From positions 1-43,859 of the IMG/VR virus record IMGVR_UViG_3300037483_000714: 43,859 nucleotides of DNA, one strand, 5' to 3'. This document shows positions 150 to 34,019 of the stretch, in pieces. The translations under genes and the position numbers were made by a program. The notes beneath the pieces were generated by a model, which saw only the letters and a program-made list of their open reading frames with translations, ran no database searches and was not told where the DNA came from. Each line of letters opens with the position of its first letter. Position 1 is the first letter of the stretch. Source of the stretch: a virus (taxonomy: Duplodnaviria > Caudoviricetes).

Positions 150-522
150 GGCGGCGTTGCGGCGGGCGTTCGAGGCGCTGAGCGCCGAGGAGCGGGGCGA
201 GGTGGTCCGGCAGACCAAGGGGCGGCTGAGCACGGTCGTCAGGGGCCACGTCGAGCAGCAGAAGCCGGACATGGTGGAGAGCCTGTGGACGAGGGGCGCA
301 TTGCGGGAGGTGATGCGGGAAAGGAGCGCCGCACCCCGCCAGACGGAGGGCGGGCAAGCGTGCGGCTCCGGAGGTGACAAGGCAACGGGGGGCGGCCCGG
401 CCGCCTCCGGGGGTGGCAAGGCAACGGGGGGCGGCCCGGCCGCCTCCGAAGGTGGCAAGGCAACGGGGGGCGGCCCGGCCGCCTCCGCAGGTGGCAAGGC
501 AACGGGAAGGGGGACGGATTGA
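1..522 (+). CDS. 3' part of HTH replication initiator (continues from 42883)
   Basis: Frame of ORF 67..522 is open from base 1 and continuous with the ORF starting at GTG 42883 when circularised. Confidence 0.8.
   Translation, partial: KPAVEQVAAEVSRECLAERRREMEERQRLEAAQAAEEERRRQTAGDEADRAALRRAFEALSAEERGEVVRQTKGRLSTVVRGHVEQQKPDMVESLWTRGALREVMRERSAAPRQTEGGQACGSGGDKATGGGPAASGGGKATGGGPAASEGGKATGGGPAASAGGKATGRGTD
367..506 (+). repeat. 39-bp tandem repeat (~3.5 copies; GGKATGGGPAASx)
   Basis: GGCGGCCCGGCCGCC hairpin core at 391, 430 and 469. Confidence 0.9.
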
Positions 523-1931
523 GCGCGTGGGAGATCATGGAGGGCGACTGCCGGGAGGTGATGGCCTCGATGGAGGCGGAGAGCTTCCATGCGTGCGTCG
601 GCGATCCGCCCTACGGCCTGGAGTTCATGGGGAAGGAGTGGGACAAGCTATGGGACGGCCGCCCAAGTGGGGGGTTCAATGGCGGGCATCATGTGGGCCG
701 CGTAGGTCCCCAGTACAAAGGCGGCGCTGCCGCCCAGGAGTGGCACGGGCTGTGGCTGGCGGAGGCGTATCGGGTGCTGAAGCCGGGGGCGTTCCTGTTG
801 GCGTTTGGGGGGACGCGGACGTGGCACCGGCTGGCGTGCGCGATAGAGGACGCGGGGTTTGAGTTGCGGGACACGGTCATGTGGCTGCACGGACAGGGGT
901 TCCCGAAGAGCCTGGACGTGAGCAAGGCGCTGGACAAGAAGGCGGGCGCCCAGCGCCCGACCGTCGGGACCGAAATGGTAGACATCGGAATCCAAAGCGG
1001 TTCCATGCACGCGGGGCGAGAGAGCCGTTTCGTTGAACGGGCCGTCACCGCCCCCGCGACGGACGCCGCGCGACAGTGGCAAGGATGGGGCACAGCTCTC
1101 AAGCCGGCGTACGAGCCGATCCTGGTGGCGCGGAAGCCGCTGTGCGGGACCGTGGCGGAGAACGTGCTGGCGCACGGCTGCGGGGGGATCAACGTGGATG
1201 GGTGCCGGGTGGCTGGGGCGGCATGGGTGCGCGATACCGGCCACAAGAAAAGCATGGCCGGCGGCAAGTTCCACGCTGCTGCTGAAGCGCCCCATGTGGA
1301 GATCATCCAGGTGGCTAATCCGGCAGGCCGCTGGCCGGCGAACGTCTGCCTTGACGAGGAGGCGGCGGGGTTGCTGGACGAACAGAGCGGCCAGCTTACC
1401 AGCGGCGCACGAACGGGCGGGGCGTCGCGGTTCTTCTACTGCGCGAAGGCGAGCAGGCGCGAGCGGGAGGCGGGGCTGGCGAATGGGGAATGCGGAATGC
1501 GGAATGCGGATTTGCCTGACGCACACAACCTGAGTAGCAACGCCTGCGCTCGATGTGGCAAGAGAGTCAAAGCGAACGGCAGCGGCGACAGGTGTCAATG
1601 CGGCCCGGACCGAATCACCGTGAAACTGCCGCGAGCCCTCAACCACCATCCGACGGTGAAGCCGTTGGCGCTGATGCGGTGGCTGGTGCGGCTGGTGACG
1701 CCGCCTGGCGGGACGGTCCTCGACCCGTTCTGCGGCTCAGGCACCACGGGGTGCGCGTGCGCGCTCGAAGGCTTCAGCTTCGTGGGCATCGAGCAGGACG
1801 CCGGCTACTGCGAGATCGCGCGGAAGAGGATCGGCCACGCGGAAACGTCCACTGCCGAGCCCCTGTGGGATCGGAAAGCAGTTGACGTGCCACCATCGGA
1901 GGCGGCTGGGCCGCCGGGGAGGGAGACATGA
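519..1931 (+). CDS. DNA methyltransferase, N6-adenine/N4-cytosine (beta class)
   Basis: N-terminal DPPY motif, HPTVKP, C-terminal VLDPFCGSGTTG SAM-binding motif. Confidence 0.93.
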   Translation: MSAWEIMEGDCREVMASMEAESFHACVGDPPYGLEFMGKEWDKLWDGRPSGGFNGGHHVGRVGPQYKGGAAAQEWHGLWLAEAYRVLKPGAFLLAFGGTRTWHRLACAIEDAGFELRDTVMWLHGQGFPKSLDVSKALDKKAGAQRPTVGTEMVDIGIQSGSMHAGRESRFVERAVTAPATDAARQWQGWGTALKPAYEPILVARKPLCGTVAENVLAHGCGGINVDGCRVAGAAWVRDTGHKKSMAGGKFHAAAEAPHVEIIQVANPAGRWPANVCLDEEAAGLLDEQSGQLTSGARTGGASRFFYCAKASRREREAGLANGECGMRNADLPDAHNLSSNACARCGKRVKANGSGDRCQCGPDRITVKLPRALNHHPTVKPLALMRWLVRLVTPPGGTVLDPFCGSGTTGCACALEGFSFVGIEQDAGYCEIARKRIGHAETSTAEPLWDRKAVDVPPSEAAGPPGRET

Positions 1932-2200
1932 GAGGGAGCAGTCGGCCGCTGTTCGGGGGGGTTGGCGCCGGGGAGCGGGCACGAGAACGGAAGTCCACGT
2001 CCATTGTGCACCGGCGGCGGCGGGCGGGGGAGGTGAGCACGGCCCGGACGGCGATCCGCAACCACTGCATCGAGTGCATGGGCTACCAGGCGCGGGACGT
2101 GGCGACGTGCAGCGCGCCGGAGTGCCATCTGTGGCCGTATCGGATGGGGCCGAGGGTGAGGCCGGACGGGGGAGTGGCACCTGACGCCTCTGGCGGCTAA
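1928..2200 (+). CDS. Small Cys-containing phage protein
   Basis: IRxHCxEC...C...CxLWPYRMG pattern; ATGA overlap with the methylase stop. Confidence 0.65.
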   Translation: MRGSSRPLFGGVGAGERARERKSTSIVHRRRRAGEVSTARTAIRNHCIECMGYQARDVATCSAPECHLWPYRMGPRVRPDGGVAPDASGG

Positions 2201-2302
2201 AGGTGCGTACAGGCATACAGGTAGACGCGCGCTATCAAGCGTGAGGGCGGTCCAAAGGGGTCTAAGGCGTTGCGGACCGCGCGCGGGCATACGGGCGGGG
2301 GC

Positions 2303-2330
2303 TTGACACTGTGACTGAAACTGTTACACT
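2303..2330 (+). promoter_or_regulatory. sigma70-type promoter upstream of gam-like gene
   Basis: TTGACA-N16-TACACT with TGn extended -10; GGGGAGG RBS before ATG 2356. Confidence 0.65.
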
Positions 2331-2355
2331 TCAATGCGCATGAGGGGAGGCCGCT

Positions 2356-2901
2356 ATGGCTGACCAGGACCAGGGCGTGCTGGTGAACGTGACGCTGGCC
2401 GTGGTGGAGCGTGAGCTGCGCAAGATCGGCGAGGCCGAGCTGGAGCTGGAGCGGCTGCAGGGCAAGCTGGACGCCGATCTGGCGGGGGTGACCGTCCGGC
2501 ACGAGCCGGCCATCCGGGCGGCGCGCCAGAAGGTCAACGACCTGAAGGTGCGGCTGGAGGCCGGGGTGAGTGGGGCGCGCGAGCAGCTCTTCGAGGCGGG
2601 CTCTCAGACGCTGAAGGTGGGGCTCGGCCAGGTGAGCTACCGCAGGGCGCCCGACCGCGTGGAGGTGGCCGACGGGCTGGAGGTGCGCGACGTCATCCGG
2701 AAGATGCAGCGGGCGCGCAAGCGGCAGTTCTACAAGGTGAGCTACGGGCTGGACAAGGCGGCGCTCAACAAGGCGGCCTCCGCCGGCGTGCTGGACGATG
2801 CGGCGCTGGAGGAGCTCGGGCTGCAGGTCATCCGGGGCGGGGAATCGTGGACGGTGAAGACGGACCACGAGGCCGTGCGCGAGGCGGTGGGGAAGGGCTG
2901 A
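2356..2901 (+). CDS. gam: Mu Gam-like host-nuclease inhibitor (DNA end-binding)
   Basis: N-terminal coiled coil then LF...TLKVGLGQVSYRR...LDKAAL...LGLQV pattern typical of the Mu Gam family. Confidence 0.8.
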   Translation: MADQDQGVLVNVTLAVVERELRKIGEAELELERLQGKLDADLAGVTVRHEPAIRAARQKVNDLKVRLEAGVSGAREQLFEAGSQTLKVGLGQVSYRRAPDRVEVADGLEVRDVIRKMQRARKRQFYKVSYGLDKAALNKAASAGVLDDAALEELGLQVIRGGESWTVKTDHEAVREAVGKG

Positions 2902-3051
2902 TGGGAGGCAACCGGGTGCGACTCACGCCGCCCGACGGGGGAGGAGCGGTTCCCCCCTCAGCCGGACCCCCTGCGGGTCAATCGACCTCAGCCTTCGAGA
3001 AAAAAACGGGCCGGCAAATCGGGGTGGTGATACCCTAAGCGAGGCAAACCG

Positions 3052-3651
3052 ATGAGCAAGAAGCCGGCGACGACGGCGGTCCAGCTATCAATCCAGATGC
3101 GGCCGACGGGGGCCATCAAGCCCTATGAGAAGAACCCGCGCCACAACGAGCAGGCGGTCGAGGCCGTGGCCGCCTCGATCAGGGAGTTCGGGTTCAGGCA
3201 GCCCATCGTGGTGGACGCCGATGGCGTCATCATCTGCGGGCACACGCGGTGGAAGGCGGCGCAGAGGTTGGGCCTCGAGCGCGTGCCCGTGCACGTGGCC
3301 ACCGACCTGACGCCGGAGCAGGTGCGGGCCTACCGCCTGGCAGACAACGCCACGGGGGAGCTGGCGGAGTGGGACTACGGGCTGCTGGGCGTCGAGCTGG
3401 CGGACCTGGAGGGGCTGGGCGTGGACCTGGGCGTGATCGGCCTGGGCGACGACGTGCTGGCGGACCTCTCGCGGCAGGCGAATGCTGCCCAGGCCGATGC
3501 AAATGCCGTCGAGGTGCCCGCCCCGGACCCCCGCATCGCGATCAACATCCGAGTCCCTGCGGCCATCTGGCTAAGCAAAAGGGAGGAGATGCGGCGGCTC
3601 TTCGATCAGATCGCACGAACATACCAGGCTAAGGTGCAGATCGATGAGTGA
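3052..3651 (+). CDS. ParB/Sulfiredoxin N-terminal domain protein
   Basis: IKPYEKNPRHN...SIREFGFRQPIVVD...IICGHTRWKAA...AYRLADN. Confidence 0.9.
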   Translation: MSKKPATTAVQLSIQMRPTGAIKPYEKNPRHNEQAVEAVAASIREFGFRQPIVVDADGVIICGHTRWKAAQRLGLERVPVHVATDLTPEQVRAYRLADNATGELAEWDYGLLGVELADLEGLGVDLGVIGLGDDVLADLSRQANAAQADANAVEVPAPDPRIAINIRVPAAIWLSKREEMRRLFDQIARTYQAKVQIDE

Positions 3652-4990: not shown

Positions 4991-5376
4991 AGGGCCTGCA
5001 ACCACTTAGCTGGACTCATTGTGCCAACAATGCCCGCGTGATGAGAAGGGCGCCCAATAGCGGTTGCCAGAACGGAGAGGCACAATCTCAGTATTTCCGA
5101 CTCATCTCCCACGGCATCCATGAGGGCGGTTCGGAGGCTCTTTGCCTCCTCATGCGCCTCGACGAACATGCGGGGTTCTACGCCGATGGTCCGCTGCCAG
5201 ACATCCGTACCATTGTCCCAGTCCATTTCTCATCTTCTCCAGGGATAGAGTCAATGCACCAGGTAGCCTACCAGAAGCGTAACCCGTTGTCAATAGCAAT
5301 GTTACGACGGGTTCTGTCGGCCCCATGTGCCGGCTTTTGCGGTTTTCTTCTGGATGGATGGGAACGGATCGAGTGA
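4981..5376 (+). CDS. Hypothetical protein in radical SAM cassette
   Basis: Low-GC ORF overlapping the rSAM stop and the terS start. Confidence 0.45.
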   Translation: MPLKGLQPLSWTHCANNARVMRRAPNSGCQNGEAQSQYFRLISHGIHEGGSEALCLLMRLDEHAGFYADGPLPDIRTIVPVHFSSSPGIESMHQVAYQKRNPLSIAMLRRVLSAPCAGFCGFLLDGWERIE

Positions 5377-5981
5377 ACCAGACGCCGACCATGCGGGAGC
5401 TGGTGGAGCGGTACAAGAGCGACCCGGGGTCGCTTACGCCGGCGCAGTTGGAGGCGGTGGAGAGGCGGATACGGCGGGTGCGCGCGACGGGGCCGCAGGC
5501 AGCGCAGCGGGACCAGACCAAGGAGCAAGTCGCCCAGGCCATCAGCGTTCATCCGCGCACGGTGCAGCGCTACGCGGGCGAGGGTATGCCGCACACGGCG
5601 GGCGGCCACGGCCGCCCGCACCTGTTCAACCTGGGCGAATGCCTGCAATGGCTGATGGAGCAGGGCCGGCCGCCGTTCAACAAGCTGGAGCCAGACGGGG
5701 ACGGGAAGGCCGGCGCGGATCTGAAGCTCAAGCGGGAGAAGGGCAGGCTCGCGGAGCTGGACAGGCTGGAGCGCGAGGGGGCGCTGCACGACACGACGGA
5801 ATGCCGCGAGCGGCACATCAAGCAGCTCTGGGCGTTCAAGCGGACGCTGCTGGCGCTACCCCGGTCGCTGGCGCCGGACCTGGAGGGCCGTGGCCGGGGG
5901 GAGATCGAGGCGCTGGTGAAGGAACGGATCATGGACATCCTGTCCCGTTTCGCGGGGACCTACGTTGGCAAAGGCGCATAG
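5373..5981 (+). CDS. terS: Terminase small subunit (Nu1-like HTH)
   Basis: TKEQVAQAISVHPRTVQRY..EGMP...FNLGECLQW wHTH plus coiled coil, immediately before terL; start could instead be ATG 5391. Confidence 0.82.
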   Translation: MNQTPTMRELVERYKSDPGSLTPAQLEAVERRIRRVRATGPQAAQRDQTKEQVAQAISVHPRTVQRYAGEGMPHTAGGHGRPHLFNLGECLQWLMEQGRPPFNKLEPDGDGKAGADLKLKREKGRLAELDRLEREGALHDTTECRERHIKQLWAFKRTLLALPRSLAPDLEGRGRGEIEALVKERIMDILSRFAGTYVGKGA

Positions 5982-8004
5982 CGACATCTTCCGGCCGGAG
6001 GAGCGGGAGGCGCTGCGGCCTCCGTTGGGGCTGAAGCCCTCGGAGTGGGCGGAGCGCTATCGGGTGCTGCCGCCGGGGGCGTCGAACATCCCGGGCCCGT
6101 GGCGGAACTCGAACGCGCCGTACCTGCGCGGGATCATGGACCTGGGGGCGACGCCGGGCATACTGCAGTTGAACATCCTGAAGGCGGGGCAGATCGGGGT
6201 CAGCGAGGCCTTGCGGAACCTGCTGCTGTTCTGGGCTATCACCGACCCGGACCCCGTGGGCCTGGCCCTGCCCGACCGGGTGAAGGGGCGGCACATCGTC
6301 ACGGACCAGATAGTGCCGGCGTTTCGCGACACGCCGGAGGCCTCCCGGCTGTTCAGCGCGCGCAAGTGGGACCTCTCGGCGGAACGCATCCGGCTCTTGA
6401 ACGGCTTCCTGCTCTCGCTCATGTGGGCGGGGAGCGCATCGTCCACCAGCGCGGAGGCGTTGAGGCGGGTGATCAATGACGAGGTAGACAAGTTTGCTGC
6501 GTGGGCGGGTCGGGAGACGAACCCTGTGGGGCGGACGATGACGCGGATCGCATCGTACGAGGACCGGGGCATACAGATCAACGCCTCGACGCCGACGGAC
6601 CGGCTGGGCAACATCTGGAAGCTGTGGGAGGCGAGCGCGGTCCAGCTGCAGTACATGGTGCCGTGTCCGGGGTGCAATGCGTGCCAGTATCTGAGCTTCC
6701 GGCAGTTGAAGTGGCCGCACCCGGCGGGTGAGGGGGGGCGCCCGGCGCGCCTGAGCCGGCAGGGCAAGCGGGACCTGGCGGACCGGATCGTGGCGAACTC
6801 GGACGTCTGGTATCTGTGCGTGCGATGTGGTCGGCGGATCGAGCCGATGGAGCGCAACCGGATGGTGCGGGAGGGGCGGTGGCGCAGCCTGGACGGGATG
6901 ATAGAGGACGCCGAGGCGGTGGCCGAATGGCCCAGGGGCACGCGGGTGGGGATGCAGGTGAACGCCATGAGCTGCCTGTGGATATCGTGGGCGAGCATCG
7001 CATCGGACTTCATCCGGGCCGAGGGTGACCTGGACCTGACGTTCAGCTTCCGGACGGAGAAGGTGGGGGAGCCGTGGGAGGAGCAGATCGACAAGCCGCG
7101 GGCGAGCGTGTACGCGGACAAATCGGAGCGTGCGGAGCTGGAGCAGGGGACGGTGCCGGCATGGGCGGTGAAGCTGCTGGCGACGGTCGACACGCAGCAG
7201 GACCACTTCTACTTCGTGCTGCGGGCATGGGGGCCGGAGATGAAGTCGCAGCGGGTGTTCCACTGCCGGGCGGAGAGCTTCGCCGAGCTGGACGACCTGT
7301 GCTTCAGGCGGGCCTGGCCCGTGGAGGGGGAGCGTCCGGGCGCGGCGGTCAGGCGGGCCATGCAGCCGGAGATGGTGTTGATCGACTCGGGCGGCACGAC
7401 GGAAGAGGGCAAGGCGGCGAGCCGCACGATGGAGGTCTATCGCTGGGTGATGCGGCGTCGTGCGCGTGCTCGGGCTATCAAGGGGGCGGGGGCGGTGAAG
7501 CGCCGCCGGGAGGGCCTCTACATCTGGCCGGGGAAAGGATTCATGGACGTGGAGTCGCCGGGCCGGTCGAAGGCGGCGGGCCGGTCGAAGCGGGTGCAGG
7601 TGCTGACGCTATGGTTCCTGGACACGCACCACTTTGGCGACCTGCTGGCGGACCTGATCGCGCAGGGCACGGCGGAGGATGACGAGCGGGAGGAGGGCTG
7701 GCTGCTGAACCGGGCGAACGACGAGGAGTACAACGGCCAGCTCTCGAACGTGCAGAAGCGGCTGGTGCGGACGGGGCGGGGGCCATCGATGGAGGTGTGG
7801 GAGCCGAGCGAGACGGGGGCGCCGAACCACTACTGGGACTGCGAGGTCTACCAGGTGGCTGCGGCCTACATGGCGCACGTGGACCTGCTGCCGTCGGCGG
7901 AGGAGATGGAGGAGTATCGGAAGGCGATGTCGAAGGCGGCGCCCCCGGCGTCGCCTGGCCTGGCGGTGCAGCACGGCAAGCGCAAGATCAGGGCGCACTA
8001 CTGA
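5965..8004 (+). CDS. terL: Terminase large subunit, lambda GpA family
   Basis: PGPWR..NAPY, KAGQIGVSE Walker A variant, INDEVD Walker B, STPT, VPCPGC zinc motif, TVDTQ nuclease, NHYWDCEVY. Confidence 0.95.
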   Translation: MAKAHSDIFRPEEREALRPPLGLKPSEWAERYRVLPPGASNIPGPWRNSNAPYLRGIMDLGATPGILQLNILKAGQIGVSEALRNLLLFWAITDPDPVGLALPDRVKGRHIVTDQIVPAFRDTPEASRLFSARKWDLSAERIRLLNGFLLSLMWAGSASSTSAEALRRVINDEVDKFAAWAGRETNPVGRTMTRIASYEDRGIQINASTPTDRLGNIWKLWEASAVQLQYMVPCPGCNACQYLSFRQLKWPHPAGEGGRPARLSRQGKRDLADRIVANSDVWYLCVRCGRRIEPMERNRMVREGRWRSLDGMIEDAEAVAEWPRGTRVGMQVNAMSCLWISWASIASDFIRAEGDLDLTFSFRTEKVGEPWEEQIDKPRASVYADKSERAELEQGTVPAWAVKLLATVDTQQDHFYFVLRAWGPEMKSQRVFHCRAESFAELDDLCFRRAWPVEGERPGAAVRRAMQPEMVLIDSGGTTEEGKAASRTMEVYRWVMRRRARARAIKGAGAVKRRREGLYIWPGKGFMDVESPGRSKAAGRSKRVQVLTLWFLDTHHFGDLLADLIAQGTAEDDEREEGWLLNRANDEEYNGQLSNVQKRLVRTGRGPSMEVWEPSETGAPNHYWDCEVYQVAAAYMAHVDLLPSAEEMEEYRKAMSKAAPPASPGLAVQHGKRKIRAHY

Positions 8005-9102: not shown

Positions 9103-9360
9103 ATGGCATGGGTGTACAGCGACTACGTTACCTACTCGTACGGGGCCACGCGGCTCTCCGAGTTCCGGCTGCACATCCAGGAGGTCTCCGACGCGCTGAC
9201 GGCGGAGATGACGAGCGGCGGCCGGTCGCATTCGACTTCAGCGATCCAGACCTACCTGCAGACGCTGAAGGACGCCGAACCTGACGAGGCGATGCGCTGC
9301 GATGCAGCGGCCGGCACCCGTCCGGCATTCTCCCGCGCGCGTCCGAGGCCGACGCCATGA
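9103..9360 (+). CDS. Head-completion protein (gpW-like by position)
   Basis: Small ORF directly before a lambda-type portal; RBS GGAGG. Confidence 0.6.
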   Translation: MAWVYSDYVTYSYGATRLSEFRLHIQEVSDALTAEMTSGGRSHSTSAIQTYLQTLKDAEPDEAMRCDAAAGTRPAFSRARPRPTP

Positions 9361-23743: not shown

Positions 23744-24216
23744 TCACGCGACTGACACCGCGCATGGTGCGGGACGTGCTGGACCTGCTGCAGGCGTTCC
23801 GGCGCGGGGAGTTGTCCGCCCGGCCGACCGGACTGCGCAGGGGGGAGATGCCCCTGGTGCAGAGCGCCTTCGGCCGACTCTACATGGTCGTGAGCGTGGA
23901 GGGGGGCGGATGCAGCGTGGCGATGCCGGACGAGGACGGGGACCCGGCGAGCGGCACGGAGCTGGCGGGCGTGCTGTACGATCCGGACGCCGTTCCGGCC
24001 GAGGGCGACCTGGGCCAGGTCCTGCGTCTCAGCAACGGCAGCCTGTACTTTCATCCGGGGGGTGGCGGCGTGGTCCGTCGTCTCAGCTTGAACGGAGGCC
24101 TGGCTGCCGACAGCATCGACATTCCGGCCACGGCCAAGATCGGCTTCATCGGGTTGACCGTGGACGCGAATGGCGAACCCGTCATCGACTTCACGACCGA
24201 GTGCTACGAGGTCTGA
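23740..24216 (+). CDS. Putative tail protein
   Basis: Coupled ORF in the tail operon. Confidence 0.55.
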   Translation: MITRLTPRMVRDVLDLLQAFRRGELSARPTGLRRGEMPLVQSAFGRLYMVVSVEGGGCSVAMPDEDGDPASGTELAGVLYDPDAVPAEGDLGQVLRLSNGSLYFHPGGGGVVRRLSLNGGLAADSIDIPATAKIGFIGLTVDANGEPVIDFTTECYEV

Positions 24217-24217
24217 G

Positions 24218-24880
24218 ATGGGTTGCGTTGAGACAGCAGTGGCGAATCTGATCGCGGAGGTGAACGTAGTCGTGGATTGCTACACCACGCGCGGGTGCGC
24301 CCTGTCGCCTGTGGCTACGGAGCATGGGTGTGTGGCCGACGTGATCCAGGCCATCGAAGAAACCATCGAGGCGATCACGGAGTGCGAGGAGTACAACGGC
24401 GGTTATGTCTTCCATGCTGAGGACTTTAGCGGTTGCCTGGACGCCGTGGTGGATGCTGTGGGCGAGATGAATCTCGGCTGCAGGACGCCGTGCAACGGGT
24501 GCGCCCCGCCGATACCGGATACGCTGTATGTGACGTTTGCTAACCTGGAAGGGGACTTCGCGCCGTGGAATGGCAAGCACACCCTTACGTGGTACACGGG
24601 GTGCGAGTGGTATGACGACCCAACATATGCACTTATCCCCGGACCTTACATTCGGCTCTATTGGGCTGGCGGGAACAATCGTTGGAGGATCTGGCTTGTC
24701 AAGAGGAACGAAGGAGACAACCCACTTGATTGCCTGATTCTCTGGCAAAGCGACAGTACGGGTAACACCTGCGCGCCTTCGGATGACTACTCAGTAACAA
24801 CCTGTTGGCCCGTGGGATGTACGGATACAGACTCATGTGCTAATATAGCAAACGCGACATGCGTGGTGAGCCTGACATGA
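24218..24880 (+). CDS. Cys-rich putative tail-tip protein with low-GC C-terminal half
   Basis: Many Cys residues; GC drops markedly from ~24520 to 24880. Confidence 0.6.
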   Translation: MGCVETAVANLIAEVNVVVDCYTTRGCALSPVATEHGCVADVIQAIEETIEAITECEEYNGGYVFHAEDFSGCLDAVVDAVGEMNLGCRTPCNGCAPPIPDTLYVTFANLEGDFAPWNGKHTLTWYTGCEWYDDPTYALIPGPYIRLYWAGGNNRWRIWLVKRNEGDNPLDCLILWQSDSTGNTCAPSDDYSVTTCWPVGCTDTDSCANIANATCVVSLT

Positions 24881-25218: not shown

Positions 25219-25345
25219 CAACTGACAACTGACAACCCCGCCAGAGGCGGGCAAGTCTCAACTAACAAACAGAGGCCCGGCTTCGTTCGCCGTGCGGCGA
25301 ACTACGCCGTGGCGAAACACTGACGTGTTTCGGAGGGACTGACCG

Positions 25346-25973: not shown

Positions 25974-28900
25974 ATGGCTGACGTAGCAGCCCATCTGGCC
26001 TACCCGGCGGAGAAGGTCAGCGCCGCCGAGCGCTACCGCTACGCCTACGGGGTCTTCGAGGCACTGCGCCTGAAGCACAACACGCGGGCGGGGGACTTGG
26101 GGCCGGAGGCGGTGGCCTTCCGTGCGGAGTGTATGCGGCATCTGCGGCGCGCCCAGGCTGACATCCTCGCCCTGCGGCCGGCCGTCGCTACGCCAGACTG
26201 GAAGGGCACCAAGGATGACTACGCCGACCCGGCCCTGGAACTGGCGAAGGCGGAAGGAAAATCCGCGCAGCGGGACGCGGACCTGAAGTCTGCCATCGGC
26301 GTGGACCTGGACGCCTTCCGCGCTATCGCGGAGTTGCCGCCCGATCCGCTGGAGGTCTTCACGTCCTACACGGAGGTCGACGAGACAGGCTGCGTGACGG
26401 CGGCCACCAACACCGTCACGGCGACGGGCATCAACCGCAACGAGGACTCGGCCCTCTACGACGACAAGGGTGCCGGGGCGCTGACAAACTTTCTGCATCG
26501 TCTGCACTTCAAGCCGACGTGGATAGCCCAGAACAGCGCCTGCTGCTCCTGGGCCGTCTCGAACGTCGTCAACACATCGAACTACTGGAAGCTCAACTCC
26601 AGCCAGGCCCTCGACTTCCAGGTCTACTCGCTGGCGGGCAGCACCTACCGCGCCGACCTGCGCAACGAGGAAACGGACACATACGACCGCTGGTCCGGGC
26701 CGACCAATAACACGGACTACTATCCCGCAGCGTGGAAGGACGGCAGCACGGCCGGACTGGACGCCTACTCGGACTCCGACCGGACCGTGCTCGTCGATGC
26801 CCTGACGGTCACCGTCGTACGCGAGCGGACCTACCGGTATGTCTTCCCGCTCAGATCGGTCGACTACAACCTCAATGCCACGATGACGCTCGTGAGTTCC
26901 AATCTGGACCTCCAGCACACGGGGCACTACTACCTCGACGTAGACGGCGACGGGGCGACGGGGCAGTGGACCAAGAACGGTGCAGCCACGTCCTGGGAGT
27001 GCCTGGAGCCTGACATCTACCCGCCGGACGTGCCAAACTTCGCAGCGGGCACATCGCTGACGTCCAACAGCAACGGCCAGGTCGTCGAGATGACGCTGGA
27101 GACGTTCACGCTCCCGGCCGGCACGGAGGCCACCGAGATCATGTTCCCCGTCAACTGCTACGCCTCGGGGGCGGGCGGGGACAACATCCAGATTCAACTT
27201 TACGACGGCGCCTCCTGGCAGGCGGCCCAGGACCTGGACCCTGACACGAGTTACGGCTGGGTCTACGCGACGTTCAGCGGCCTGCACATGGACCAGACGG
27301 CGGTCAACGCCGGGCAGGTGCGGTTCATCAGCGTCATTCCGATAGGCGGCGGGGTCGGCATCGAGGCCGGGCCGGCGCGGGTGACGGTTGCGGCGGTCGA
27401 GGGCGAGAGCTATGAGGCCGACGTGGACGGCGGCGTGCAGCTGCAGGTCCCCGGAGCGGTCGCGGGGACGCAGGCGCACGCGGCCGACGTGGATGGCGGC
27501 GTGCAGGTGCAGGCGCCGGGCGCGGCCAGCGGGACGCAAGCGCACGCGGCCGACGTCGACGGCGGCGTGCAGGCGCAGGCGCCGGGCGATCCGTCCGGGC
27601 AGGAGGACTCCGGGGAGGTCAGCGCCGACGTGGACGGCGGCGTGCAGCTGCAGGTGCCCGGCCAGGCCGGCGGGACGCAGGCGCACGCGGCCGACGTGGA
27701 CGGGGGCGTGCAGCTGCAGGCGCCGGGCGCGGCCGGCGGGACGCAGGCGCACGCGGCCGACGTGGACGGGGGCGTGCAGGTGCAGGCGCCGGGCGATCCG
27801 TCCGGGCAGGAGGACTCCGAGGCGGTGAGCGCCGACGTGGACGGCGGCGTGCAGGCGCAGGTGCCGGGTGACGCGGAGGGCCACGTCGAGGTTGCCCTGC
27901 TGCTCTCCGTGCCGGTCTCGACTCTGCGGCGCCTGAGCTGGGCGATGGGGGGCACCGTCTACGTTGTCATCGACGGCGCGCTCGCGGCGGAGAGCGCGGA
28001 GGGCTACGTCGACCTGGCGGCCGATGTTGTAGCGCGTGGCATCCTGGTGGCCTACGCCGAGCTGTTCACGCCCCTGCCGACGCCGCGCGACGAAGTGCTG
28101 CTGACCGTCAGCGGAGACCCCGTCCTCCACCACATCGAGCGGCGGCCGAGCGGCGGGAGCTGGGGCGAGATCGCCGCGATCCTCGGGGACAGCTACCGGG
28201 ACGGGCCGCTCGACGACGGGGACTACGACTACCGGGCGGTGGCCGAGGACGAGGAGGGCGACGAGGCGACGGGCAACACGCAGAGCGTCACCATCTCCTC
28301 GATGCCCGACCCGCCGAGCGGGCTGGACTACGAATGGGACGGGGAGACGCAGACGCTTGTGGTGTCCTGGACGGCCAGTCCGAGCGCCGACGTGGCCAGC
28401 TACCGCGTCCGCTCCAGCGCCGGCGACGAACTGCTCGAACTGACGGCCGCGCCGGTGCAGGAGTCCGCCGGCCTCACGTGGACGAAGGTCTTCACGGACG
28501 AGACCGGGCAGTGGATCGTGAACGTCCGGGCCGTGGACGCCGACGGCAACGAAGAGGCGAACATCAGCCGGACGATCAGCCTGACCTTCACCGCCGGCCT
28601 GCTCGTGGCCGCGCCCGTCGAGCCGGACTCCGTCTGCGCCGTGGCCGCGTCGGGCGGGAAGATCGAGGTCGGCTGGCTCTACCGGCCCTGGAAGGAGGCC
28701 CCGCCGGGCACCGGCGCGGCCTACGAGGCGCGCGTCTACGGCGACTCCGGCACGGGCACGGTGGACTGGGACACACCGCTGGACACCGTCCTGATGGACG
28801 GTCCTACGTCGGAGGCGGCCTATGCCTGGACCAGCGGCGCGCTGACGGACGGGGTGACCTACCGATTCGGCGTGCGCATCGCCACGGCGGCCTGGCCGGA

Positions 28901-28991
28901 CGGGGTCGAGACCCAGAACCTCGGGGTGGTCTACGCCACGGCGGACAGCGACGTGCCGGCGACGCCCGAGCTCACCGCGCAGGTCGTCTGA
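25974..28991 (+). CDS. Large tail/adhesin-like protein with internal repeats and C-terminal FN3-like domains
   Basis: 1005 aa; PDPPSGL...VSWTASPSADVASYRV, VRAVDADGNEE, LTDGVTYRFGVR. Confidence 0.75.
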   Translation: MADVAAHLAYPAEKVSAAERYRYAYGVFEALRLKHNTRAGDLGPEAVAFRAECMRHLRRAQADILALRPAVATPDWKGTKDDYADPALELAKAEGKSAQRDADLKSAIGVDLDAFRAIAELPPDPLEVFTSYTEVDETGCVTAATNTVTATGINRNEDSALYDDKGAGALTNFLHRLHFKPTWIAQNSACCSWAVSNVVNTSNYWKLNSSQALDFQVYSLAGSTYRADLRNEETDTYDRWSGPTNNTDYYPAAWKDGSTAGLDAYSDSDRTVLVDALTVTVVRERTYRYVFPLRSVDYNLNATMTLVSSNLDLQHTGHYYLDVDGDGATGQWTKNGAATSWECLEPDIYPPDVPNFAAGTSLTSNSNGQVVEMTLETFTLPAGTEATEIMFPVNCYASGAGGDNIQIQLYDGASWQAAQDLDPDTSYGWVYATFSGLHMDQTAVNAGQVRFISVIPIGGGVGIEAGPARVTVAAVEGESYEADVDGGVQLQVPGAVAGTQAHAADVDGGVQVQAPGAASGTQAHAADVDGGVQAQAPGDPSGQEDSGEVSADVDGGVQLQVPGQAGGTQAHAADVDGGVQLQAPGAAGGTQAHAADVDGGVQVQAPGDPSGQEDSEAVSADVDGGVQAQVPGDAEGHVEVALLLSVPVSTLRRLSWAMGGTVYVVIDGALAAESAEGYVDLAADVVARGILVAYAELFTPLPTPRDEVLLTVSGDPVLHHIERRPSGGSWGEIAAILGDSYRDGPLDDGDYDYRAVAEDEEGDEATGNTQSVTISSMPDPPSGLDYEWDGETQTLVVSWTASPSADVASYRVRSSAGDELLELTAAPVQESAGLTWTKVFTDETGQWIVNVRAVDADGNEEANISRTISLTFTAGLLVAAPVEPDSVCAVAASGGKIEVGWLYRPWKEAPPGTGAAYEARVYGDSGTGTVDWDTPLDTVLMDGPTSEAAYAWTSGALTDGVTYRFGVRIATAAWPDGVETQNLGVVYATADSDVPATPELTAQVV
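27417..27870 (+). repeat. Seven coding repeats ADVDGGVQxQxPG (22,22,25,22,22,25 aa plus a partial copy)
   Basis: Directly visible in DNA and protein. Confidence 0.92.
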
Positions 28992-29098
28992 GGCGGCCCA
29001 GCCGCCTGCGTGCGGGGTAAGTCAACGGCGGGCGGCCCGGCCGCCTGCGTGCAGGGTAAGTCGACGGCGGGCGGCCGAGCCGCCCGTGTGCATGGAAA
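28992..29098. repeat. 39-bp tandem repeat (3 copies) between convergent operons
   Basis: GGCGGC-N3-GCCGCC cores at 28992, 29031 and 29070. Confidence 0.85.
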
Positions 29099-29186
29099 GA
29101 GAGCGGCCGGGTCCTGCCTCCCACGGCCCGGTCGCGCGGCCGGCGCTGGCAAGCCTCACCAGCGCCCGGCCGCACGCTCCGTCGGA

Positions 29187-29387
29187 CTACGGCCGGGGCG
29201 CCGGTGCGGGGGCGGCGATCCAGGCTTCGAGCGCCCGGCGGCTTAGGCCGGTCGGCCGCATGCGGCCCTGCTTCCAGGCGTTCCAGGTCCCGAGGCTGAC
29301 GCCGACCTGCCGGGCGGCGGCCTCCTGGGACAACGGCGCCCGCCGCTTGCGGGCCTCCTCGGCTCGGACTACCAGATCATCAATCAT
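29187..29387 (-). CDS. XRE-family HTH regulator (Aca-like position)
   Basis: LSQEAAARQVGVSLGTWNAWKQGRMRP; GGAGGG RBS. Confidence 0.85.
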   Translation of the reverse strand: MIDDLVVRAEEARKRRAPLSQEAAARQVGVSLGTWNAWKQGRMRPTGLSRRALEAWIAAPAPAPRP

Positions 29388-29419
29388 CGTCCTACCCTCC
29401 GTTGGGACCCGTAGGCCGG

Positions 29420-29695
29420 TTAGTCCTGCGCATAATACCCGCGCTGCTCGTCGCCGTCGTGCGGTACGGTCAGCAGCCACACGTCCTCCGGCGGATACCA
29501 GGCGACCTGCCCGCAGACGTGCTCGCCACAGCAGCAGGTGGCCATCCCGCAGACCGCGCGGTTGAGGCTCCGCGCGACGCGCGCCGAGACGCGGACCTCA
29601 TCCCCCGCCTGGGCGTCGGCCGGGACGCGCGCCGCCAGGTTGGCTAGGCCGTGAAACCCGTTATGCGTCCACCGCACCAGTTGCGTCTTAGCCAT
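29420..29695 (-). CDS. Small hypothetical protein (91 aa)
   Basis: GGAGGG RBS; CGMATCCCGE motif. Confidence 0.7.
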   Translation of the reverse strand: MAKTQLVRWTHNGFHGLANLAARVPADAQAGDEVRVSARVARSLNRAVCGMATCCCGEHVCGQVAWYPPEDVWLLTVPHDGDEQRGYYAQD

Positions 29696-29707
29696 CGTGC
29701 GTCCCTC

Positions 29708-30301
29708 CTATCTGCGGCCGGCGCGCAGGGCGCCGGCCAATGTGTTGCGGAGCAGGCGGGCGGTCGTCGTCCGGCGGCTGCCGCTACGGTGTGCAAGCAA
29801 CACGTCCGGCTGGGTCCATCCACGATCATTGCTGCTCGGTAGATCGGCCATCGTGTCCGGGCTGGCGAGAAGAATGGTCACATCCGGCCGCGTCCGGTCC
29901 ATGTAGGCCGCGCGCTGCCAGCGCGTGCGGACGTGGTCGGCGATGCGGACGACCGATCCGCTGTCCAGGATCACATAGACCGCCCCGTCGGACTCGCCGA
30001 CAACCTGTCCGTGCAGGCGAGCCAGACGGACCACGGCCGCCAGCAGGCCGCTACCGGATGGCCTGGCGTGGCGGGACTCGTGTCCAGCCTCGCGCTGCTC
30101 GCGCGCAGCGGCGGGGCGGCGCGGCCGGAGCGTCCGGGGCGAGCGGACACCGAGGAGGCGGGCGGCGTCCTCGACACTCGCCGCGGGCGGCAGTATGACG
30201 ACCTGACCGCTCCGGTGCCACTCCTCGCCGTCCGGCGTCATCTGCCAGGGCAGCCACTCGTGGTGCAGCAGCAGATCCCGCGCCGGCTGGTCGCTGTCCA
30301 T
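29708..30301 (-). CDS. Hypothetical protein (197 aa)
   Basis: GGAGGG RBS; YVILDSGSVVRIADH motif. Confidence 0.65.
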   Translation of the reverse strand: MDSDQPARDLLLHHEWLPWQMTPDGEEWHRSGQVVILPPAASVEDAARLLGVRSPRTLRPRRPAAAREQREAGHESRHARPSGSGLLAAVVRLARLHGQVVGESDGAVYVILDSGSVVRIADHVRTRWQRAAYMDRTRPDVTILLASPDTMADLPSSNDRGWTQPDVLLAHRSGSRRTTTARLLRNTLAGALRAGRR

Positions 30302-30355
30302 CGTCCTGCCCTCCAGCCCGCCAGAGGCGGGCAAGTTGCGGCCCTTGCGGGCCGG

Positions 30356-30760
30356 TTAGTCCTGCTTGGTATACGGGGTGTTGTCCGGCCGCCCGGCCGC
30401 CCGATCATCCATCGCGGTCACGTCGCCAGCTCCGATCTGCGTCAGGAGGCTGTGACAGGCCGCGCAGTAGTAGGCGGTGACGCGGACTTGTCCGGCGCCC
30501 CAGGCAGCCCACTCCTGCTGATGGTAGGCCGTGGCACGGGCGATGGTGGCATGGCAGCGATCACACTGCACCTGCGGGTCCGGCTCGCGCGGCGGCAGGG
30601 TCACGTTCCGGTAGCTCAGGGGCGTCCCGCGACCGGCGGCCTGGGTGTCCGCGACGACCTGCCGCCACGCCGGCTCGGTCATGTGCCGGATGTGCGGATG
30701 CCGCACCGTCTCCACCAGTCCGTCTGGCCGGCGCACGGTTACGTCGCAATAGCTCTCCAT
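30356..30760 (-). CDS. Hypothetical protein with two CxxC motifs (134 aa)
   Basis: GGAGGG RBS; first gene after a consensus promoter. Confidence 0.7.
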   Translation of the reverse strand: MESYCDVTVRRPDGLVETVRHPHIRHMTEPAWRQVVADTQAAGRGTPLSYRNVTLPPREPDPQVQCDRCHATIARATAYHQQEWAAWGAGQVRVTAYYCAACHSLLTQIGAGDVTAMDDRAAGRPDNTPYTKQD

Positions 30761-30808
30761 CGTCCCACCCTCCGTACTGGTCCGTTGGTCCCTCGTAATC
30801 ATGTCCTT

Positions 30809-30836
30809 ATTATACCCCGTGTATATGGGCTGTCAA
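30809..30836 (-). promoter_or_regulatory. Consensus sigma70 promoter with overlapping dyad TATAC-N5-GTATA
   Basis: Minus strand TTGACA-N16-TATAAT in ~70% GC DNA; dyad at 30811-30825. Confidence 0.85.
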
Positions 30837-30918
30837 GCGGGGAAAGCGGAATTCCGGGCGGATTTCTGAGAAATTCCGGGGCGGCGCCGGGAGGGGTGAA
30901 ATAGGCTACCGTTTTTCG

Positions 30919-30948
30919 TTGACGCCGTGGACGGCTATCTGATACACT
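30919..30948 (+). promoter_or_regulatory. Putative promoter for the recombinase
   Basis: TTGACG-N18-TACACT with TGn extended -10. Confidence 0.5.
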
Positions 30949-31100
30949 ACCGCTAATCACTCTTTCCGGTAGCGGGTACGCTCCCCAGAAAGAGGCCAGA
31001 ATAGGCCCTAACGCCATGATACACCGGCAGTTACGACGCACCAGGCCGGGGCCGAAGGCCGGGCGCGGGGATTTTCGGTAGCCTTTAGGAGGGCTTTTCG

Positions 31101-31682
31101 ATGGCGCGGAAACGCAAGCTTCCGGCATGGCTCCAGCCGTCCGAAGTCGCGGCCCTGAAAGCGGTTCCGAACACCCGGTGTCCGACCGGACTGCGGAACA
31201 GGGCGGTCCTCGAAGTGCTCCACCTCATGGGGCTCCGCAACAGCGAGGTCTGCAACATCCGCCGGACGGACATCGGCTGGCGGAGCCGCAAGCTCATGGT
31301 GCGTGGCGGGAAAGGGGGGAAGGACCGCCCGTTACGCATCCCGCAGGTGGTCATGCCGTGGATGGAGGCCTGGGACGGCAGGCGTCACCGTGGGGCGGAG
31401 TTTTTCTTCTGCACCCTGGCCGGCGGCCAGTTGGACGGCCGTTACCTGCGGCAGCTCGTCCGGCGCCTGGCCGAGAAGGCCGGCGTCGAGCGGCCCGAGC
31501 GGGTTCACCCGCACGCCTTCCGGCACACCTTCGCTACGGAGACGCTGCGGCGGGGGGTCGACGTGCGGAAACTGCAGGTGATGTTGGGCCACGAGAACCT
31601 GGCGACGACGGAGCAGTATCTGCACGCGACCGAGGACGACGTTCTGGACGCGATGGACACGTTCGCCGACTTGGAGGAGTAG
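31101..31682 (+). CDS. Tyrosine recombinase, catalytic domain only (193 aa)
   Basis: GLRNSE, GKGGKDR, HPHAFRH, LGH and TTEQY motifs; AGGAGG RBS. Confidence 0.93.
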   Translation: MARKRKLPAWLQPSEVAALKAVPNTRCPTGLRNRAVLEVLHLMGLRNSEVCNIRRTDIGWRSRKLMVRGGKGGKDRPLRIPQVVMPWMEAWDGRRHRGAEFFFCTLAGGQLDGRYLRQLVRRLAEKAGVERPERVHPHAFRHTFATETLRRGVDVRKLQVMLGHENLATTEQYLHATEDDVLDAMDTFADLEE

Positions 31683-31692
31683 CCGGCGCCGC

Positions 31693-32196
31693 CTACTTGA
31701 CGATCCGCGGGCTGGCCCCGTCAAACTCGCCGAGGATCGAGTCGTCGCGGTAGGAGAGGACCCGCACGAAGGGCAGACCGCGTGCAGCCTCCATCGTGGT
31801 GCCCAGGCCGCACAGCACGTCGGCCTTCCCGTCGCGATCCATGGCGGCCCAGACGGCGGGTTCCATCCAGACTTTGCCGGCGTCCACGTCCCACCGGGCG
31901 ATTGCGCCTTGCGCCTGGGCCTGGGAAAGCAGGGCCACTGCCTGATCCCGCAACTCTGCCCTTGCCGCGGCCTGCTCCGGCGTCGGGGGAGGGGATGGCG
32001 CAAGGAGGGCGCCGCAGCCCCGCCAGATGAGCACGGTCGGAACGCCGACGAGGGCTAGGACCAACACGGCCACGATGGCCGAAGTGACCTGGTGCTCCCT
32101 CTTGCTCATGGCCGGATTCGAGGTGCCGCAGTGCGGGCACTTGGCCGCGCCGCTGCCGACCTGGCCGCCGCATTCCCGGCAGTTCTTCAGGGTCAT
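31693..32196 (-). CDS. Zinc-ribbon membrane-anchored protein
   Basis: CRECG...CPHCG followed by a TM helix and a soluble domain. Confidence 0.75.
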   Translation of the reverse strand: MTLKNCRECGGQVGSGAAKCPHCGTSNPAMSKREHQVTSAIVAVLVLALVGVPTVLIWRGCGALLAPSPPPTPEQAAARAELRDQAVALLSQAQAQGAIARWDVDAGKVWMEPAVWAAMDRDGKADVLCGLGTTMEAARGLPFVRVLSYRDDSILGEFDGASPRIVK

Positions 32197-32385: not shown

Positions 32386-32748
32386 CTACTGCGGGTCGCG
32401 GCGGTCGTCAAGAGGTCTTTTCGCCCGCAACACCGACAGGCCGCCGACCAGTCGGGGATGGCCATCTCGGTTGACGCGGACCTCGCCCCTGTGGATGATG
32501 CCTGCGCGCGGGTCGACCTGGAACAGGTGGACGCGCCAACCTTTGCCCGCCAGCCATGCCATCTCGGCGTCGGCCGGACGCACGAAACGCCAGTCCTCGT
32601 GCCAGACGGCGGCGCCGTTGCGGTGGCCGTTCGGTCCGGGAGATCGCCGTTCGGAGGGATCGCACCAGACGAGGAGCCAGGCGTAGTCGAGAGGGAACAA
32701 CACGGTCTGTCGGGATGGGGCAACGCCCGGCGGCGGCGGTCGTGTCAT
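32386..32748 (-). CDS. Hypothetical protein
   Basis: First leftward ORF from the divergent control region; start uncertain. Confidence 0.4.
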   Translation of the reverse strand: MTRPPPPGVAPSRQTVLFPLDYAWLLVWCDPSERRSPGPNGHRNGAAVWHEDWRFVRPADAEMAWLAGKGWRVHLFQVDPRAGIIHRGEVRVNRDGHPRLVGGLSVLRAKRPLDDRRDPQ

Positions 32749-32825
32749 ATTGAGCCGCCGGGGGCAGAGCAATGGGCGTTCCGGCGCCTCAACCTGGGCC
32801 GCGGGAGAAAATTCGTGAAGAGCTA

Positions 32826-32880
32826 TTGACACGGGGGTGCTACCTGTGGTAAAAGGTGCTTCTGTGGGTGCAACATAATA
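32826..32880 (+). promoter_or_regulatory. Rightward early promoter region
   Basis: TTGACA at 32826, TAAAAG 18 nt later, repeated GGTGC(T/A) boxes. Confidence 0.5.
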
Positions 32881-33451: not shown

Positions 33452-33654
33452 ACGAGGGGCGGGCGGAGGTGGCGCGGCATCTGGGGGAGTTCTTCGGGCT
33501 GGTCGGGGCGGTGCCCGTGGCGGCTGGGCGCTACGCGCTGGTCGCGGTGGGGGCGCCGCTGCTCTGCTTCGTCTTCAGCCTCCTGGCGCGGGCGGGACAC
33601 GAGCAGGCGGGATGGCGGCTGCTGGAGAAGTTCTTCCACGGGGAGGGGACATGA
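33448..33654 (+). CDS. Small membrane protein
   Basis: Hydrophobic; coupled ORF. Confidence 0.45.
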   Translation: MNEGRAEVARHLGEFFGLVGAVPVAAGRYALVAVGAPLLCFVFSLLARAGHEQAGWRLLEKFFHGEGT

Positions 33655-34019
33655 CCAACGGGACAGACATGCCGGAGCGGCTGGAGGCTGTGGGCGCCGC
33701 GTTTCTGCAAGAACTCCGGGCGATGCACCGGCAGACCGAGGCTCGATTCATGCGGGAGTTGGACTGCATCCGCACGGAGCTTTGCCCGCCTCAGCCGGAG
33801 GACGATGCGTTGACGGCTGAAGAGGCTGGGCGCGTCGCCGGGATCAGCTACACGGGGATGCTCGCGCTCCTGTCTGCCGGCGTCGTGCCCGCGCGCACGG
33901 TCGGGCGCAAGGGGCGGGGGTGGCGTGTCAGTCGGGCCACGGCGGAGGCGGTAAAGGGGCAGCTGGATGCCCTGGCCAGGGAGCTGCGCGATGTCCCCAC
34001 GGGGAAGGAGAGGCCATGA
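33651..34019 (+). CDS. Excisionase-like HTH (HTH_17/MerR-type) protein
   Basis: LTAEEAGRVAGISY...GVVPARTVG....WRVSR. Confidence 0.7.
   Translation: MTNGTDMPERLEAVGAAFLQELRAMHRQTEARFMRELDCIRTELCPPQPEDDALTAEEAGRVAGISYTGMLALLSAGVVPARTVGRKGRGWRVSRATAEAVKGQLDALARELRDVPTGKERP

Follow-up and report, generated by a model that had tools for sequence, protein, structure and literature searches.

A four-gene cassette antisense to the tail operon

The IMG/VR virus record IMGVR_UViG_3300037483_000714 (Caudoviricetes) is a linear sequence of 43,859 bp, about 65% complete by CheckV. We analysed this whole stretch of DNA, here called the window, and focus on a compact operon at 29187-30836 on its minus strand, referred to below as the cassette. 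Four co-oriented genes make up the cassette: open reading frame (ORF) 1 of 134 aa (30356-30760), ORF2 of 197 aa (29708-30301), ORF3 of 91 aa (29420-29695) and, last, a gene for a 66-aa XRE-type helix-turn-helix (HTH) protein (29187-29387). The gaps between them measure only 6 to 54 nt, and the HTH gene is followed by a hairpin. The three leading ORFs, which we call the cargo, are supported by their coding frames and by a GC content at third codon positions (GC3) of 0.83-0.87, like that of other phage genes (ORF1 0.83; ORF3 0.87). For the HTH gene, a frame plot shows that the third-position GC bias of its frame continues through 29187-29387, and its assignment draws additionally on profile and fold matches. 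The cassette lies between the tail-fibre gene and the integrase gene, directly after the former (25974-28991, plus strand) and antisense to it. A preliminary description of the window had reported three small unrecognised ORFs of these lengths ahead of a final 66-aa gene, in an operon antisense to the tail operon and just after it; coordinates, lengths and placement all agree with our gene map.

The four genes share an unusual translation start signal. Each begins with a 16-nt start box, GGAGGG-NN-GGACG-ATG, on the minus strand (29385-29400, 29693-29708, 30299-30314 and 30758-30773), one copy carrying one mismatch. A search of the window with up to one mismatch allowed finds the box nowhere else, and a total of four was never reached in 100 shuffles. 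For comparison, any GGAGG within 20 nt of the uncurated start was found in 9 of 29 other called genes. The boxes of the HTH gene and ORF2 are identical at 15 of 16 positions. We also found a 15-nt end box, CAGGACTAACCGGCC, that is identical at 29414-29428 and 30350-30364 and spans the stop codons of ORF3 and ORF1. Despite this common box the two genes are not paralogues (BLASTP E 8.5), and its presence at two stop codons fits the idea of standardised gene boundaries.

The RNA of the cassette is predicted to be structured at two places. The 5′ leader is unstructured (fold z -0.8); two GC-rich hairpins then occupy the spacer between ORF1 and ORF2 (30316-30353, minus strand; -31.7 kcal/mol, z -2.3) and are a possible attenuator or mRNA stabiliser. 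A 19-nt hairpin sequence from this spacer, CTTGCCCGCCTCTGGCGGG (30317-30335), recurs identically on the same strand at 25237-25255, where it sits after a small Cys-rich plus-strand gene of the tail region. At the other end, a long GC-rich hairpin without a U-tract lies directly 3′ of the HTH stop codon (29133-29176, minus strand). The surrounding region, 28985-29200, folds with a z of -3.3, a value that none of 200 shuffles equalled, and the hairpin is likely the terminator of the cassette. Its own promoter, the strong start boxes for translation and the probable terminator together make the cassette appear to be a self-contained unit.

The composition of the cassette differs from that of the rest of the phage in one respect. 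Codon adaptation of its genes is 0.55-0.64, compared to 0.68 ± 0.06 in 28 other phage genes, as would be expected for acquired cargo. GC content shows no difference, at 0.70-0.75 for the cassette and about 0.69 for the backbone. No tRNA or Rfam matches were found near the cassette.

A consensus promoter and its candidate operators

Transcription of the cassette is predicted to start from a perfect sigma-70-type promoter on the minus strand (30809-30836), in which TTGACA (30836-30831) and TATAAT (30814-30809) are separated by a 16-nt spacer, giving 12 of 12 consensus positions. The preliminary description had reported exactly this promoter, and we confirm it at the same coordinates. It is the sole perfect match in the window, and no dinucleotide shuffle yielded one (0/100).

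Over the spacer and the -10 hexamer lies a dyad, TATAC-N5-GTATA (30811-30825), with arms 10 bp apart from centre to centre. It has no other copy anywhere in the window. Its geometry would suit an HTH dimer, making it a candidate operator. The dyad is where the preliminary description had placed it, but shuffle tests do not lift it above chance: allowing up to two mismatches, the pattern occurs at least once in 43 of 100 shuffles of the window, and an inverted repeat with arms of at least 5 is present in 35% of random 40-nt windows of the genome and in 25% of core-promoter shuffles. Upstream of the -35 hexamer we additionally observe AT-rich palindromes (30847-30878), namely CGGAATTCCG (30847-30856) and CGGAATTTCT-C-AGAAATCCG (30859-30878). 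They contain all three copies of CGGAATT in the window and could be a second or alternative operator, or an UP-like element.

The terminal HTH protein and its nearest relatives

The last protein of the cassette is small (66 aa) and strongly basic (isoelectric point, pI, 11.6). Its profile matches are individually weak, with Pfam HTH_31 at E 1.5e-4 (22.4 bits, under the 27-bit cut-off), phrog_2104 at 6.4e-6, and weak NCBIfam matches to NadS and YiaG-type regulators. An AlphaFold2 model contains four helices at a predicted local distance difference test score (pLDDT) of 70, with about 10 residues outside the helices and a tail of about 8. Its structural matches tie at Z scores of 5.3-6.8 and include HigA2 (6.3), Aca1 (6.2), lambda cI (6.1), Aca2 (6.0), Aca10 (5.6, at 32% identity), P22 C2 (5.5) and controller proteins of restriction-modification (R-M) systems (5.3-5.6); Aca denotes anti-CRISPR-associated proteins. 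Foldseek returned nothing at E 0.001 or better. It placed the C-terminal domain of the HigA2 antitoxin first and also listed C.Kpn2I, C.AhdI, C.Esp1396I and HipB. The label XRE HTH used in the preliminary description is thus borne out by weak profiles, model and fold matches jointly, and by no single one of them.

In sequence, the best match in the PDB is Aca10 (7XI5; E 0.013, 19 bits), a protein of 65 residues compared to 66 here. In fold alignments the two are 32-35% identical over 54-56 aligned positions, the highest identity among the listed hits. According to the report on Aca10, its DNA contacts are made by Q22, Q37 and R44, and G49 acts in the dimer (PMC9410881). A phmmer alignment pairs Q22 with Q21, Q37 with N36 and G49 with G47 of the HTH protein; R44 falls in a 2-residue insertion relative to the HTH protein, beside the aligned R45/R42. 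A TW..W..G..P stretch appears in the alignments to Aca10 and to Atu1735. We therefore regard the protein as a predicted XRE-type regulator whose nearest characterised relative by sequence happens to be an Aca. It is not a demonstrable member of any Aca family. A word-based search of 5.8 billion proteins returned only a 98% identical copy, and we found no homologous loci whose neighbours could provide guilt by association.

Similar small HTH proteins also serve in other kinds of module. Antitoxins of the HigA2/MqsA type and R-M controller (C) proteins are small XRE HTH proteins with the same TW..W..G..P stretch and equal fold scores, and they likewise autoregulate via a promoter dyad. The higBA and mqsRA operons place the toxin gene first and have an autoregulated promoter dyad, and the gene order of the cassette resembles theirs. 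The cassette could accordingly be an addiction-type module, either a toxin-antitoxin system or a controller-regulated nuclease, with the HTH protein as antitoxin or controller and ORF3 or ORF2 as the toxic partner. The top Foldseek rank of HigA2, the controllers and HipB listed with it, and the NadS and YiaG-type profile matches all point in this direction. However, neither ORF3 nor ORF2 resembles any family of toxins or nucleases in Pfam, NCBIfam or the PDB, and no toxin, nuclease or methylase partner is recognisable in the cassette. The HTH protein, with its roughly 10 residues outside the four helices, has no extension that could bind and neutralise a toxin, and with four genes the cassette exceeds a simple pair. 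We consider this explanation very improbable.

Three near-orphan cargo proteins

ORF1 carries two CxxCH motifs and has a zinc-ribbon-like C-terminal half. Searches of Pfam, NCBIfam and the PDB gave weak sub-threshold hits to cytochrome c that are due to the CxxCH motifs only; the PDB matches, to cytochrome c and WhiA, are at chance level. No signal peptide is seen by inspection. The Atlas model (pLDDT 0.67) has zinc-ribbon neighbours, all below the bar of the tool. The word-based search of 5.8 billion proteins again returned only a 98% identical copy, and the one match to ORF1 from the metagenome scan, at a single locus, was spurious and out of frame. An in-frame ATG at 30802 falls where transcription is expected to start, 7 nt past the -10 hexamer. 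It is possible, judging from this arrangement, that a leaderless 148-aa form of ORF1 is made alongside the 134-aa form led by a Shine-Dalgarno sequence.

ORF3 contains five cysteines in the pattern C-x4-CCC-x4-C. It matches no family in Pfam, PHROG, NCBIfam or PADLOC, no PDB entry and no viral contig, and is an orphan within these libraries.

ORF2 is the largest cargo protein and is basic (pI 11.2). Its N-terminal 75 residues look excisionase-like and include an HTH-looking stretch, ASVEDAARLLGVRSPRTLR; residues 75-195 belong to a rare domain family without a name. In the word-based search of 5.8 billion proteins ORF2 found itself only. HMMER against 1.84 billion representatives identified three true relatives of 129-138 aa (E 2.4e-9 to 1.7e-5), which align to residues 75-195 with 34-37% identity; a fifth listed protein, beside ORF2 itself, is a LapA repeat protein and was judged spurious. 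All members of the family are on short metagenomic contigs. Over about 120 residues they share an invariant Y, R-x3-H-x-R, A-x-Y and D, corresponding to Y109, R119, H123, R125, A131, Y133 and D140 of ORF2. ORF2 and its relatives have no match in Pfam, PHROG, NCBIfam, PADLOC or the PDB, and a profile built from the four proteins found nothing in IMG/VR and nothing in the PDB. The AlphaFold2 single-sequence model is unusable overall (pLDDT 40) and comes near pLDDT 70 only at residues 41-60, a helix within the HTH-looking stretch. An Atlas model (pLDDT 0.52) has the restriction-endonuclease-like neighbours pPIWI_RE_REase and Mrr_cat at TM scores of 0.39-0.45, below the bar, which we treat as a lead only.

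Two further searches covered the cassette as a whole. PADLOC-DB 2.0, at E up to 1, gave no family for any of the four cassette proteins or the three ORF2 relatives, and IMG/VR scans with each of the four cassette proteins returned no relatives.

The integrase side and the early switch region

The cassette is divergent from a tyrosine recombinase gene that starts 265 nt away (31101-31682, plus strand; 193 aa). The protein matches PF00589 with E 7e-36 over profile positions 2-170 of 172. It consists of the catalytic domain only, without an N-terminal core- or arm-binding domain. A candidate promoter for this gene, TTGACG-18-TACACT with a TG (30919-30948, plus strand, 9 of 12 consensus positions), would drive the divergent transcript, and a CTACCG-N14-CGGTAG dyad covers its -10 hexamer and start. 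The 339-nt intergenic region contains CGGTAG/CTACCG four times and GTGTAT three times (30903-31084), compared to 34 and 8 in the whole window, and these copies include the cassette dyad and the -10 of the candidate integrase promoter. The statistics of these motifs are overstated, as a genome with 69% GC will show enrichment of AT-rich k-mers wherever its DNA is intergenic.

This neighbourhood raises the question of whether the cassette belongs to the integration system. In such a module the divergent integrase promoter would be under the control of the HTH protein and ORF2, or these two would serve as a recombination directionality factor, with ORF1 and ORF3 as accessories. The short divergent arrangement with a catalytic-domain-only recombinase and the motif copies common to both promoters are consistent with this, as are two properties of the proteins: the ORF2 model is best in its HTH-looking helix, and the 66-aa protein is the only XRE-type HTH found by Pfam scans of the called genes in this incomplete record. 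Several observations speak against it. With E values up to 1, no Pfam family, and hence not HTH_17, matches ORF2; a weak HTH_17 match belongs instead to another protein, in the early operon (33612-34019). The motif counts overstate the case, as noted above, and excision regulators do not usually have a perfect promoter. We consider a role in integration quite unlikely. We also considered an invertible promoter beside the small recombinase and rejected it: the best flanking repeat (30786-30798 and 31031-31043) matches at 11 of 13 positions, which 37% of shuffles equal, and the lack of any strand-switch joint in the metagenome contigs compared counts against it as well.

The early genes have a switch of their own. 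A divergent early switch region at about 32750-32860 has its own TTGACA promoter, with two GGTGCT..TGTGG repeats on the rightward side, and its leftward operon encodes a 120-aa protein and two membrane proteins. The 120-aa gene (32386-32748, minus strand) is not annotated, has a GC3 of 0.79 and belongs to no family. Except for one GC-rich 10-mer, the cassette promoter region and the switch region have no 9-mer or longer in common. The cassette promoter is therefore probably outside the control that governs the early promoter, which would make the cassette's own HTH protein its obvious regulator. A CI/Cro-type lysogeny switch was rejected as the role of this protein; the switch region has its own repeats, and the TATAC/GTATA pattern is absent there.

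Natural variants of the cassette

Sequence of the window was found in contigs of four sediment-metagenome runs, none of them listed as an RNA dataset. A 3524-nt contig of run X1 matches 28900-31369 (2470-nt overlap) with four differences only. All four lie in codons 31-40 of ORF1 (30643-30669, 27 nt), and three are non-synonymous (A31V, A37V and Q40E). An origin of this patch by a diversity-generating retroelement was rejected, as the changes on the coding strand (C>G, C>T, G>A and C>T) have no adenine bias.

Run X2 yielded two informative contigs. The first, of 1129 nt, covers 30805-31700 with 34 differences in a mosaic pattern: none in 30805-30837 (about 1.3 expected, and thus uninformative), three in 30838-30874, none in 30875-31369 and the remainder in the integrase gene. 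Two of the three differences in 30838-30874 fall within the palindromes at 30847-30878, which are thus not strongly constrained. The second contig, of 2064 nt, matches 28942-29388, including the HTH gene, at about 99% identity (5 differences in 447 nt) and departs from the window exactly at the HTH start box. Beyond this box it runs for 401 nt, of which only about 30 match elsewhere in the window, at the ORF2 start box; the joint is reported to 30299, with a 30-letter side. The contig could reflect deletion of ORF2 and ORF3 by recombination between boxes, or a variant with different cargo, and it offers a weak hint that cargo differs between near-identical phages.

Relation to acr-aca operons and possible roles of the cassette

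Anti-CRISPR (acr) operons of the acr-aca type are described as having small genes without assigned function behind a strong promoter, with an HTH gene at the end and an inverted repeat in the core promoter (PMC9410906, PMC9410881). In the account of PMC9410906, the repeat IR1 of every Aca family lies within the core promoter and has arms of 5 bp spaced 10 bp apart, which is also the geometry of the cassette dyad. Aca10 is reported to be a 65-residue dimeric repressor of the acrIC7-acrIC6-aca10 operon of Pseudomonas citronellolis, with an operator of two 10-bp half-sites 1 bp apart (PMC9410881). Aca1, Aca2 and Aca10 are described as binding the core promoter and shutting it off (PMC9410906, PMC9410881), and Aca1 of phage JBD30 and Aca2 of Pectobacterium phage ZF40 as autorepressors (PMC6765145).

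The cassette resembles these operons in layout. Like acrIC7-acrIC6-aca10, it combines a strong sigma-70 promoter, several small genes and a last gene for a four-helix HTH protein of about 65 aa, with an inverted repeat within the core promoter. The resemblance extends to Aca1 (7FA3/7C0G) and Aca2 (7EZY/7VJO), which share the XRE-type fold and are likewise encoded last in operons where a strong promoter drives small genes. The differences concern the parts. Unlike the Aca10 operator, the cassette dyad has 5-bp arms 5 bp apart and is unrelated in sequence; the HTH protein is only 17-18% identical to Aca1 and Aca2, and the additional C-terminal portion that serves dimerisation in Aca2, whose listed chains have 117-124 residues, is missing from it. 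Unlike the genes of acr operons, the cargo has no similarity to any Acr in the PDB, Pfam, PHROG or NCBIfam. The cassette thus appears to be built like an acr-aca operon, yet we file it as acr-aca-like and not as a member, because its cargo has no Acr relative and neither Aca membership nor a conserved operator is established. The preliminary description had read the locus as an acr-aca-like anti-defence operon; the architectural half of that reading stands, and the functional half finds no support, the cargo matching no known Acr, anti-defence or defence family.

The reading that we tentatively place first is that of an accessory operon, in which the terminal HTH protein would repress its own promoter and the near-orphan cargo would act on the host early, likely against its defences. 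Host RNA polymerase could fire the consensus promoter without phage factors, so that the operon would be made at once on entry, an expectation that follows from promoter strength only. The four genes would be efficiently translated. The HTH protein, as the last product, would accumulate and bind TATAC-N5-GTATA between -35 and -10 as a dimer, or alternatively the CGGAAT palindromes just upstream of the -35, and its binding would shut transcription down, as Aca proteins do; we accordingly predict it to be an autorepressor of the cassette promoter. The cargo proteins would meanwhile act against host defence or otherwise take over the host soon after entry. This last role is the weakest step of the explanation and is read from the architecture, because no cargo protein resembles a known Acr, anti-defence or defence protein.

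A number of observations weigh against this reading. The dyad is no more than chance would give, and its conservation has no comparison material, as no homologous locus was found in IMG/VR or metagenome scans. The similarity of the HTH protein to Aca10 appears weak, below family-level significance, and its fold matches tie at Z 5.3-6.8 among antitoxins, phage repressors, Aca proteins and R-M controller proteins. The cargo has no match among known Acr, anti-defence and defence families in Pfam, PHROG, NCBIfam, PADLOC and the PDB. Acrs are typically small, acidic proteins, and ORF2 seems unlike them in being large, very basic and DNA-binding in appearance. As no host is assigned, no defence system can be named as target, and the hint of cargo exchange comes from one contig with a 30-letter side that the tool flagged as unreliable. 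Finally, a promoter and terminator of its own beside the integrase gene would fit a gene unit expressed in lysogeny equally well.

Such units are reportedly what Juhala and Hendrix called morons, independent promoter-gene-terminator units between conserved phage modules, and mycobacteriophage work is said to have found that prophage regions beside the integrase hold defence genes. In this alternative the cassette would be transcribed from the prophage independently of the lytic repressor and would endow the lysogen with, for example, superinfection exclusion or a small nuclease-type defence against other phages, with the HTH protein holding expression at a tolerable level. We consider a lysogeny-expressed moron or defence cassette nearly as likely as the anti-defence reading, and thus possible rather than probable. 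Like morons, the cassette is an autonomous unit: it brings a promoter and hairpin terminator of its own, is oriented against the late operon in the stretch between tail fibre and integrase, and has codon adaptation below that of the rest of the phage. The promoter has no operator-like sequence in common with the early switch region, and ORF2 is basic with low-confidence restriction-endonuclease-like Atlas neighbours. Unlike morons, it has four genes, a built-in regulator and standardised start boxes, and its GC is the same as that of the backbone. PADLOC found no match for the four cassette proteins or the three ORF2 relatives, the model behind the nuclease hint reaches pLDDT 0.52 and TM scores below 0.5, and a 12/12 promoter with optimised start boxes on every gene exceeds what maintenance-level expression would need.

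The anti-defence reading has a bolder form, which we consider rather unlikely, in which the cassette is a plug-in slot whose start and end boxes recombine to swap cargo and the three cargo proteins are new inhibitors of host immunity. A 16-nt start box would mark out every gene and the end box CAGGACTAACCGGCC two of them, and cargo would be gained or lost when boxes recombine through their short homology, as the X2 joint suggests. ORF2 would be the founding phage member of its domain family, which is very rare and spans 120 residues. What sets this cassette apart is the start box in four copies, the end box in two, the rarity of the ORF2 family and the isolated, uncultured high-GC lineage.

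The consequences differ among these readings. Should the cargo counter host defences, a lineage of uncultured, high-GC sediment phages would contribute three unrelated families of protein, and the search rule of a strong promoter plus a terminal HTH gene would reach beyond the cultured hosts that gave rise to it. Exchangeable cargo could additionally be sought by means of the start and end boxes, as a simple sequence handle. If the cassette is a lysogeny-expressed moron, it would be an ordinary feature of temperate phages. In either case its practical value today is a short, well-bounded list of candidates.

The phage genome

PHROG and Pfam scans yield a siphovirus-like gene map whose mapped modules are all on the plus strand. 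It begins with methyltransferase, Gam and ParB-like genes (519-3651) and the small and large terminase (5325-8004), followed by the portal at 9357, the major head protein at 12814, the tape measure at 21324 and the 1005-aa tail-fibre-like protein that precedes the cassette; early and replication genes extend from about 32970 to the end of the window. GC content ranges from 61 to 74% in 1-kb windows. The phage appears to be temperate because of its tyrosine recombinase gene. Its large terminase is less than 33% identical to that of any cultured phage and at most 36% identical to anything in IMG/VR, which points to an isolated, uncultured high-GC lineage with no close cultured phage. The best long relative in our comparison has no synteny around its integrase, so that the slot of the cassette is not comparable there; an integrase locus with 30% identity lies at the end of its contig. 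A scan of genome contigs with the DUF5131 protein gave 13 loci from many phyla at 32-42% identity, which do not indicate a host.

Two minor features lie in and after the tail region. A Cys-rich plus-strand gene at 24213-24880, whose lower GC3 let it escape the GC3 filter, apparently fills most of the apparent gap after 24216, as judged by eye. Between the converging tail-fibre gene and the cassette, three tandem 39-nt units (28992-29108; 100, 92 and 74% identity) directly follow the tail-fibre stop codon, and each contains a GGCGGCC-N3-GCCGCC hairpin.

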